A DNA stretch of 64,000 bases, taken from contig JAVVRP010000002.1 of the NCBI GenBank assembly GCA_036654655.1, positions 51,841 through 115,840 on the forward strand, read 5' to 3'. The position numbers and the translations under genes are program-made. The notes beneath the pieces are model-generated. The model did not search any database, was not told the DNA's origin, and saw only the letters and a program-made list of their open reading frames with translations. This document shows positions 48,479 through 50,107 of this stretch, piece after piece (positions within the stretch are counted from its first letter, which is position 1; each line of letters opens with the position of its first letter). Origin of the DNA: Clostridia bacterium (GTDB lineage: Bacteria; Bacillota; Clostridia; Christensenellales; UBA1242).

Positions 48479-50107
48479 TTATGTATAGTTGTCTGGTAAG
48501 TCGTTTTCAAAAATAACCAAAGGATTTTTAAGTGAAAGTGAATTTAATAATTTAACCGCTTCGGCAATAGTTGAGGCGCAAAAAATACAATCTTGTGAAA
48601 AATTGGCTTCAATTAATCCTGATTTAATTGATTCTTCGTTTGTTTTGTTAACAATAATGCAATGTGTGCAAAATTTGGCAATGTTTGCACCAAGTATTTT
48701 GTTCTGTTCATTTTCAAGTTTTCCAAGTTCAACAAGCCCGGGAGTTATAAAAACTTTATTTTTGTTTTTAAACTTTTCAACAACTTCAAGTGTTGCAAGG
48801 GACGTTGTTGGAGAAGAATTAAAACTATTATCAATAATTGTCATGCCGTTACTTTCTTTTATTTCCAATCGGTGTGGAATTGCTTCAAGTTCTGCAATTG
48901 ATGCACAAATATCTTGTGCATTAATTCCTAAATAATTGGCCAACGCAGTGCAAAGTAATATGTTTAAGATGTTGTGTTTTCCAAGTAGTTTTGTATGACA
49001 TTCAATTTCTTGCCCGTTAAGCATAAGTGTAAAATTTGAACCACTGGAATTACAACGAATATTTTTTGTGTAAATGGGTGCTTTTTTATTTGATATTGAA
49101 ACATAAGTTTTGGGCCTGTCACGCATTTCATAAAGCGAAATACTTTTTAAATTGTCGCCATTAAAAACCATCATGCCATTAACTGCAATGGATAATTCAT
49201 TTTTTGTGCGTGCAATATTTTCTTCGCTACCAAACGTTAACAGATGTTGAACTTCAACATTTGTAATAATTCCATGTTGTGGTTCAATCATTTTGCATAA
49301 TTTTGCAATGTCGCCAACTTCTGTTGCACCCATTTCTGCAATTAAAATTTGGTTGTTAGGTTCCAAATATTTTGTAATCACTTTGGCAAGCCCCATTTCC
49401 GTGTTAAAACTATGAGGGCTCATGCATACACTATATTTTTTGCTTAACATTTTGTTAAGAATATATTTTACACTTGTTTTTCCAACGCTTCCAGTTATTC
49501 CAATTTTAATTAAATCGGGTCTTTTTTTAAGAATATTTTTTGCTTTACGTACAAAATGTTTTCGAAGCATAATTTCAAAAGGCAAGTTTGTAAAATGTGC
49601 AACTGCAACAAGAATTGGCAAAGTAATTGGCATAAGTGCAATAACTGCAAATCGTAGCAGACCAACATATTCAGTTGCAAAGGCAATTAAAATAAAAGTT
49701 AAACTTGCAATTAAAAATCCCAAAGTCACACATAGCCGTGTCATTCGATGGGTTTGAACAAGTGGAACTTTTTTTTGAACGGCATACATATTTACAATAA
49801 AAACAATTGAAAAATAAAAATAAAAAATTAAACCAAAATACGAAAAATATAAACGATTATTGTTAACTTGAAAAAGAGCATTTGTCACTAACATGCATGC
49901 AAGTGACATTAAAGAAAGCATTGCAAGCCGAGAAATATATCGGGCATGAGTGTTACTTAGCCATTCCCTATATCCAGAAATTTTGTATCCCGAAAGTTGA
50001 ATAATGTGTAAACATTTGAAGCCTGCAAAACATAATAAAATACCATTAATTATTGAAAGTGTTATTGCTATGTAAAGGTTTGGGTTTGATGATTGAAAAA
50101 ATCCCAT
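48479..50107 (-). CDS. murF: MurF-like Mur ligase fused to an N-terminal polytopic membrane domain
   Basis: The central-domain P-loop GITGSVGKTS is at aa ~204-211, and the MurF-type C-terminal signature IIDNSFNSSPTTS matches the canonical DDSYNANP. Residues 1-185 are 4-5 hydrophobic helices (LYIAITLSIINGILLCFAGF, LAMLSLMSLACMLVTNALF, FGLIFYFYFSIVFIVNMYAV, LCVTLGFLIASLTFILIAFA, FAVIALMPITLPILVAVAHF). They take the place of the usual soluble ~80-aa domain 1. The RBS is AAGGAGG. Confidence 0.8.
   Translation of the reverse strand: MGFFQSSNPNLYIAITLSIINGILLCFAGFKCLHIIQLSGYKISGYREWLSNTHARYISRLAMLSLMSLACMLVTNALFQVNNNRLYFSYFGLIFYFYFSIVFIVNMYAVQKKVPLVQTHRMTRLCVTLGFLIASLTFILIAFATEYVGLLRFAVIALMPITLPILVAVAHFTNLPFEIMLRKHFVRKAKNILKKRPDLIKIGITGSVGKTSVKYILNKMLSKKYSVCMSPHSFNTEMGLAKVITKYLEPNNQILIAEMGATEVGDIAKLCKMIEPQHGIITNVEVQHLLTFGSEENIARTKNELSIAVNGMMVFNGDNLKSISLYEMRDRPKTYVSISNKKAPIYTKNIRCNSSGSNFTLMLNGQEIECHTKLLGKHNILNILLCTALANYLGINAQDICASIAELEAIPHRLEIKESNGMTIIDNSFNSSPTTSLATLEVVEKFKNKNKVFITPGLVELGKLENEQNKILGANIAKFCTHCIIVNKTNEESIKSGLIEANFSQDCIFCASTIAEAVKLLNSLSLKNPLVIFENDLPDNYT

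Follow-up and report, generated by a model that had tools for sequence, protein, structure and literature searches.

Textbooks describe the Mur ligases as soluble enzymes of the cytoplasm; PgsB/CapB, an adenosine triphosphate (ATP)-dependent amide ligase of the same superfamily, sits at the membrane with a single N-terminal hydrophobic anchor helix and has PgsC and PgsA as its partners. MurF is listed as 'Cytoplasmic' in a recent review, and domain 1 of the E. coli enzyme comprises residues 1-81 (PMC12844806). In canonical MurF, this domain holds the uridine-ribose pocket (PMC11569785). Membrane-associated Mur assemblies that channel precursors to MraY have been a long-running question, pursued so far via weak protein-protein interactions (PMC8657477). 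Here a different arrangement is described from a stretch of 64,000 nucleotides (nt) of a Clostridia bacterium (contig JAVVRP010000002.1, positions 51,841 to 115,840), the whole of which is called the window below. A gene at 48479..50107 on its (-) strand encodes a MurF-like ligase, named TM-MurF, in which a domain of predicted transmembrane (TM) helices stands in place of domain 1. A membrane form of MurF has apparently not yet been described; no prior description of a membrane-embedded MurF was found in full-text literature, the coverage of which was incomplete, and the public annotation gives the protein as plain MurF with no mention of the membrane domain.

Reading frame, ligase part and distribution

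A sequence-only reading of the window had proposed that a single open reading frame (ORF) joins MurF-like motifs to a hydrophobic N-terminus, and this proved correct in every particular, with GITGSVGKTS at residues 203-212 and DNSFNSSP at residues 426-433. Among the candidate starts up to residue 215, only Met1 is backed by a Shine-Dalgarno (SD) sequence, while none of the 12 other ATG/GTG/TTG codons in that region has one. An internal start or a split gene was ruled out by the SD at Met1 only and by conservation of the fusion in relatives. The contrary case, an internal Met with a separate upstream membrane ORF, fails on a continuous frame, one SD and a fusion found in every full-length relative examined. 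A frameshift, a split gene or a mis-called start as the origin of TM-MurF is thus excluded. The gene and its parts are as follows.

48479..50107 (-): TM-MurF gene, membrane MurF-like ligase of 542 amino acids (aa) plus stop, from the ORF list; an identical protein is annotated MurF
50115..50120 (-): SD sequence AGGAGG, 7 nt 5' of the ATG at 50107, read from the sequence
49523..50107 (-): N-terminal membrane domain and stalk, residues 1-195, in place of MurF domain 1
50009..50083 (-): TM1, residues ~9-33, from hydropathy; AlphaFold2 (AF2) helices 9-28/30-38
49961..49999 (-): cytoplasmic loop-1 motif Q37-L-S-G-Y41...Y46..W49, from conservation in 75 family members; loop charge +3.3
49859..49939 (-): TM2, residues ~57-83, from hydropathy and AF2; missing from the 3-TM variant
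49781..49852 (-): TM3, residues ~86-109, from hydropathy and AF2; missing from the 3-TM variant
49736..49771 (-): cytoplasmic loop-3 motif K113-x-P-L-x-x-T119-x-R121-M-x-R124, from conservation in 75 members; loop charge +4.2
49667..49750 (-): TM4, residues ~120-147, from hydropathy and AF2
49583..49654 (-): TM5, residues ~152-175, from hydropathy and AF2
49526..49582 (-): basic stalk helix, residues 176-194, running on from TM5, starting at P176-x-E178 and entering the first ligase strand
48938..49498 (-): Mur ligase central ATP-binding domain, residues 204-390 (Pfam PF08245, E 8e-36), with P-loop G203-S212, E258, H288 and K302
48527..48874 (-): Mur ligase C-terminal domain, residues 412-527 (PF02875), with H412-R413, D426..N430 (DNSFNSSP) and T455-P-G..E460
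48485..48508 (-): C-terminal tail E534-N-D-L-P-D-N-Y541, family-specific, >=95% conserved

The ATP-binding and C-terminal domains had been taken as MurF-like from their motifs, and the database comparisons agree: MurF gives the best family as well as the top sequence and fold matches in the PDB. The murF family TIGR01143 leads the NCBIfam matches with 212.2 bits, while murE, murC and murD stay at or below 75 bits; no PgsB/CapB model is among the 21 NCBIfam matches of TM-MurF at E <= 0.01. Foldseek against the PDB places MurF first (4qf5, 4ziy, 4qdi, 4cvm, 3zl8, 4cvk, 4cvl, 1gg4 and 2am1, at E 5e-25 to 3e-18), with all of the top ten being MurF structures, MurE and MurC following lower, and the ~364 aligned columns covering domains 2 and 3 only. 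A profile of the family matches E. coli MurF (1gg4) at E 6e-46, starting from E. coli residue 103. Ligase residues conserved in at least 95% of the 75 relatives are the P-loop, E258, H288, K302, H412/R413 and D426/N430. In the alignments to E. coli MurF, E258 corresponds to the Glu of 'IELGAN', H288 falls in 'AAHLEGFGS' and K302 corresponds to K202, a position at which the Lys is described as carbamylated in MurD, MurE and MurF (PMC12844806). TM-MurF is homologous to MurF, and the reaction that it catalyses is most likely the usual one of MurF.

The TIGR01143 alignment spans profile positions 76-392 of 418, and in relatives it begins around the stalk, at profile positions 64-76. Neither TM-MurF nor its relatives gave a match to PF01225 (domain 1), a family that is found in the neighbouring MurE. 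The suggestion that the soluble domain 1 has been exchanged for a polytopic membrane domain is therefore upheld, since the murF profile aligns only from position 76. At the other end of the protein, the tail ENDLPDNY stands where canonical MurF has its K-G/A-S-R region, and the AF2 confidence (predicted local distance difference test, pLDDT) is low at 538-542; the tail may be a docking or lid motif.

The fusion recurs well outside the window. A protein identical to TM-MurF, P0001, is present in an NCBI Clostridia metagenome-assembled genome (MAG), where it is annotated MurF, and in several independent Logan assemblies. Among 5.8 billion proteins searched, 2135 relatives came up, and the best 120 of these have ~540-565 aa, 100% query coverage and 49-57% identity. 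A survey across related lineages had been suggested, and a species scan with one genome per GTDB species, using as DNA patterns [EA]NDLPDNY and a second pattern, found the same architecture in at least 592 species-representative genomes, a relative being confirmed in 592 of the 600 retrieved stretches. In ORFs whose 5' end is intact, the P-loop lies at median position 200, after 3-5 hydrophobic segments, and in complete ORFs of the family NDLPDNY lies close to the end; the exceptions to the hydrophobic N-domain are a few ORFs shortened by the ATG-only start rule, by a truncated contig or by an internal stop. The TM-MurF fusion is real and selected, far beyond chance.

The carriers are labelled Christensenellales/Christensenellaceae, Oscillospiraceae, Acutalibacteraceae, Ruminococcaceae or 'Clostridia'. 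Cultured carriers were not found among the best 120 matches to an Acutalibacteraceae query, all of which are unnamed or MAG proteins. One contig with a Clostridia-type hydrolase/TM-MurF pair (L022, CAVEBU010000014.1) bears the label 'Alistipes finegoldii', probably through bin contamination or mislabelling.

Topology and conserved loops of the membrane domain

The topology is based on hydropathy (Kyte-Doolittle, 19-residue window, threshold >1.6), on the AF2 model and on the family-wide charge bias. Kyte-Doolittle analysis revealed five hydrophobic segments, at ~9-33, 57-81, 86-111, 122-151 and 147-175, and past residue 196 the hydropathy never exceeds 0.93. The AF2 model of full TM-MurF, built on a 29-sequence alignment, has a pLDDT of 89.1 and a predicted TM-score (pTM) of 0.80; the membrane domain modelled alone has a pLDDT of 86.9. 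Its helices cover 9-28/30-38, a short 43-52, 57-83, 86-109, 120-147 and a single helix 152-194, after which the Mur-ligase fold follows. The TM5 helix 152-194 runs unbroken up to the beta-strand with which the ligase domain opens, and this straight connection from TM5 through the stalk into the ATP-binding domain would bring the active site close to the membrane.

The mean net charge over 75 members alternates along the domain, with -0.67 at the N-terminus, +3.27 in loop 30-56, -0.31 in loop 80-86, +4.20 in loop 109-121, -0.28 in loop 146-151 and +2.99 after TM5. Such an alternation is the positive-inside signature predicted for an N-out, 5-TM, C-in protein, a topology that would leave the ATP-dependent domains in the cytoplasm, where they are required. 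Hydropathy, the AF2 model and the alternating pattern over 75 sequences thus dispose of the objection that the protein might have no TM helices. The helix count, first given as 4-5, is five for the window protein, and a variant with three occurs in one sublineage. That a normally cytoplasmic MurF step is placed at the membrane, as the sequence-only reading had put it, follows directly from this architecture.

A 788-aa protein, P0101, appeared as a 'hydrolase + TM-MurF fusion', and a genuine fusion of this kind would not have been compatible with an N-terminus outside the cell. P0101 is an artefact, in which a TGA stop (aaaggagTGAgcaATG) was translated as Trp under table-4 gene calling. The C-terminal extensions of P0036 and P0040 likewise come from a TGA stop taken as Trp under table 4. 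Table-4 gene calling of low-GC contigs has thus generated artefactual TM-MurF 'fusions' and extensions among public proteins, the P0101 site being L085 3690-3770.

No Pfam match was found for residues 1-200, nor any NCBIfam match for residues 1-195. A phmmer search of residues 1-195 against 1.84 billion representatives gave 141 clusters and no other architecture; the long matches (512-617 aa) all carry the domain N-terminally, and the shorter ones look like contig fragments. Foldseek likewise gave no fold analogue of the membrane domain in the PDB (best E 0.94, TM-score <=0.32).

The N-domain is more diverged than the ligase, with a mean pairwise identity of 27.6% vs 47.3% among 75 family members, and its conservation is concentrated at few positions. 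At least 95% conserved are Q37, Y41 and E178 (98% each), K113 (96%) and T119, R121, R124 and P176 (100% each); P115 and L116 reach ~92%, W49 81% and Y46 78%. None of the conserved N-domain residues lies outside the two cytoplasmic loops and the boundary between TM5 and the stalk; within the domain, conservation is lowest in the TM helices and highest in the cytoplasmic loops near the stalk. The 3-TM variant, of 472 aa and confined to one sublineage (L065 9917-11335; L074; L091-L093), has lost the TM2-TM3 hairpin and kept YQLxGY, K..FTKRxxRF and PxE. Since a hairpin of two helices is lost, the topology is preserved in this variant. Because the helices are diverged, the loop residues conserved and the motifs retained in the 3-TM form, a functional cytoplasmic site is favoured over a passive anchor, and the membrane domain is probably more than an anchor. 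The simplest interpretation of this pattern is that the conserved loops would take over binding of the uridine diphosphate (UDP)-N-acetylmuramic acid (MurNAc) end.

Gene neighbourhood and housekeeping role

The gene lies between an alpha/beta-hydrolase gene and ddl, the latter directly downstream at 47314..48453, which agrees with the ddl adjacency noted at the outset.

50194..50958 (-): alpha/beta-hydrolase, directly upstream; Pfam Abhydrolase_1/6, with EstV as the closest curated family
47314..48453 (-): ddl, D-alanine-D-alanine (D-Ala-D-Ala) ligase; TIGR01205 268 bits, cutoff 245.65; ATG start according to public gene calls
46479..47309 (+): murI, glutamate racemase, convergent with ddl; TIGR00067 139.8 bits, cutoff 146.65

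The order hydrolase, TM-MurF, Ddl was found by tblastn in almost every one of 80 loci with enough sequence. Translational coupling often accompanies it: in L085 the last codons of the hydrolase contain the SD of the ligase, and in L065 the stop and start abut. The hydrolase scores 141 bits against NF058580 (EstV), below the NCBIfam cutoff of 300, and its only PDB match is a single weak, generic lipase-like one. No literature on EstV or HP0739 together with murF was found. In Helicobacter and Campylobacter, a hydrolase resembling EstV may separate ddl from a soluble murF.

In the same 80 loci, tblastn and motif scans detected no second MurF-like gene within 10 kb on either side, and the only other Mur ligases near TM-MurF are MurE (L065, L075) and MurD (L065). 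In L075, MurE lies 3.7 kb upstream of the hydrolase/TM-MurF/Ddl trio. In L065, the order is hydrolase, 3-TM TM-MurF, Ddl, MurE, two unrelated ORFs, MraY, MurD and FtsW/SpoVE, with scores of 516 bits for MurE (cutoff 373), 254 for MraY (cutoff 192) and 344 for MurD (cutoff 212). With the L065 MraY as the query, three further loci were reached, L091, L092 and L093, from relatives at 87%, 78% and 72% identity, and all three have the order hydrolase-TM-MurF-Ddl-MurE-MraY-MurD-FtsW...MurA-FtsQ-FtsA-FtsZ. The spacers between murE and mraY measure 608, 251 and 111 nt in these loci, and in L065 the two non-Mur ORFs stand between the two genes. In these four division and cell-wall (dcw) clusters (L065, L091, L092 and L093), a canonical murF is absent within ~20 kb. 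At least in its sublineage, the 3-TM form is the one MurF that the dcw cluster contains. Because murE abuts mraY and the dcw clusters have no canonical murF, TM-MurF is most likely the housekeeping MurF. Upstream of TM-MurF, L091-L093 also have spore-related genes, namely spoIIR, a sleB-like Hydrolase_2 gene, ypeB and a divergent spoVG.

The dcw cluster of the window's own genome was not reached, and extension to the right gives only the L21/Prp/L27 genes. In the window, the genes next after rsmH (mraW) at 55666-56565 (+) are a sigma-70-family gene, a radical-SAM gene and der and not the usual dcw genes, so that the dcw cluster of this genome is dispersed. In JAVVUR010000006.1 (L001 3737-4637), rsmH is split into pieces of 119 aa and 171 aa, probably by an assembly frameshift.

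Two other features of the window deserve a record. A divergent gene at 51085-55614 (+) encodes a 1509-aa protein with N-terminal hydrophobic segments and no significant Pfam match, in which a unit of ~65 aa (FASITDFAGVRDCVT.IKTQKAIIDNATSTQTQKLEA...) is repeated about three times near the C-terminus; its length varies by assembly (1434, 1499 and 1509 aa). At 6-27093 (+), four very large ORFs of 3266, 3218, 1239 and 1177 aa follow one another, and the exact sequence of the 3266-aa product at the left window edge is not on record in the assembly index.

Proposed mechanism and comparison with known systems

The reading preferred here, with a probability of roughly 0.72, is that of a membrane-tethered housekeeping MurF in which cytoplasmic loops replace domain 1 and the product is released next to MraY. 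In this model, TM-MurF would use ATP to join the D-Ala-D-Ala made by its neighbour Ddl to the MurNAc-tripeptide precursor. Five TM helices, with the N-terminus outside and the ligase inside, would replace the soluble domain 1, and the rigid basic helix that prolongs TM5 would enter the ATP-binding domain and hold the active site near the inner membrane face. Residues Q37, Y41, W49, K113, T119, R121, R124, P176 and E178 may substitute for domain 1 and hold the UDP-MurNAc end, and tethering would then hand UDP-MurNAc-pentapeptide directly to MraY.

Several points weigh against this proposal. The TIGR01143 score of 212.2 bits does not reach the curated cutoff of 288.6, and Mur_ligase_C (PF02875) scores 23.7 bits vs a cutoff of 28.4; the TIGR01143 score falls short because domain 1 is missing, and the two formal departures from MurF, at the hidden Markov model cutoff and at domain 1, have the same reason. 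The dcw evidence concerns the 3-TM sublineage and not the 5-TM form of the window, and the absence of a canonical murF was seen at loci only, so that the window's genome may have a second murF elsewhere. The MurF activity of family members is a predicted one, and the position of the loop residues in the place of domain 1 or of the UDP moiety is likewise predicted, from conservation. In addition, an acceptor with a lipid pyrophosphate would fit the basic site at the membrane interface no less well than one with UDP.

The last point bears on an alternative in which the domain binds undecaprenyl-pyrophosphate-MurNAc-tripeptide, the tripeptide form of lipid I/II, and D-Ala-D-Ala is added after MraY. 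The uridine-recognising domain is gone, and a lipid pyrophosphate would find a site at the invariant Lys, Arg and Thr residues of the predicted interface between membrane and cytoplasm, within an N-domain that is unique to the TM-MurF ligase and has no known fold analogue. Such a sequence of steps is nevertheless unlikely: positive evidence for it is lacking, the linked MraY is an ordinary one at equivalog level (254 bits, cutoff 192) that would have to favour the tripeptide nucleotide, the catalytic domains are in other respects those of a standard MurF, and the loop-1 aromatics Y41, Y46 and W49 would equally suit uracil stacking. It is also rather unlikely that the domain is a lipid-carrier-binding module at large, whether for addition to undecaprenyl-pyrophosphate-MurNAc-tripeptide or for a MurF-MraY channel that is obligatory and has the conserved hydrolase as a further participant; if it were true, the textbook order of 'peptide additions in cytoplasm, then MraY' would be rewired.

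A pure tether or scaffold, with UDP-MurNAc-tripeptide bound by the two ligase domains and the membrane part serving to localise the enzyme or to dock it to MraY, MurG or the divisome/elongasome, would have a precedent in the soluble Mur ligases that are reportedly recruited to membrane or cytoskeletal complexes, e.g. MreB and H. pylori Csd5-MurF (PMC8657477), and the invariant flexible C-terminal tail could be its docking motif. For this purpose one helix would suffice, however, rather than five, the order of conservation has the TM helices at the bottom and the cytoplasmic loops at the top, and the 3-TM variant sheds two helices and retains the loop motifs; this explanation is improbable. Most improbable is a specialised paralogue, in which a canonical MurF is encoded elsewhere and TM-MurF serves recycling, a precursor specific to the spore cortex or another polymer. 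The score under the curated MurF cutoff, the unexplained obligatory hydrolase partner and the spore-related genes upstream in L091-L093 (spoIIR, sleB-like, ypeB and spoVG) could be accommodated by it, but in the four dcw clusters murE lies next to mraY with TM-MurF as the sole MurF-like ligase in ~20 kb, no second Mur ligase except MurE or MurD occurs within 10 kb on either side in the 80 loci, and the gene is tightly coupled to ddl, like the housekeeping murF of many Firmicutes.

A membrane-tethered housekeeping MurF would surprise a peptidoglycan specialist. TM-MurF would represent a natural, strongly selected case of the last cytoplasmic step being covalently fixed in the membrane, and it would allow precursor channelling to be approached directly, together with the question of whether domain 1 is dispensable or replaceable. 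It also provides an uncharacterised membrane domain with sharply defined conserved residues to mutate, as a lineage-specific trait of Christensenellales and Oscillospirales, which are abundant Clostridia of the gut. Inhibitors aimed at the uridine pocket of MurF domain 1 would presumably be inactive on its carriers.

Among the known systems, canonical MurF (E. coli 1GG4, A. baumannii 4QF5, P. aeruginosa 4CVM and T. maritima 3ZL8) shares with TM-MurF the ATP-binding and C-terminal domains and the catalytic residues. The Mg-binding Glu, the His, the Lys at the carbamylatable position and a DDSYN-type motif are kept, and so is the linkage to ddl, murE and mraY, whereas canonical MurF is soluble with domain 1 and TM-MurF is predicted to be an integral-membrane protein with a 5-TM or 3-TM domain instead. 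The MurE-MurF fusion 8F5D and the NCBIfam MurF-alanine racemase and MurC-Ddl fusions are, like TM-MurF, natural domain rearrangements, and they unite consecutive precursor steps. In these fusions the partners are soluble enzymes and MurF domain 1 is retained, while TM-MurF swaps the domain for a membrane module. PgsB/CapB, as generally described, is like TM-MurF a membrane ligase of the Mur superfamily, but the two differ in the number of anchors, in substrate and in partners. In the complexes of MreB with Mur ligases and of H. pylori Csd5 with MurF, MurF activity is likewise brought to where synthesis takes place at the membrane (PMC8657477). There the recruitment is non-covalent and involves a soluble three-domain MurF, whereas in TM-MurF the ligase is itself covalently inserted into the membrane.

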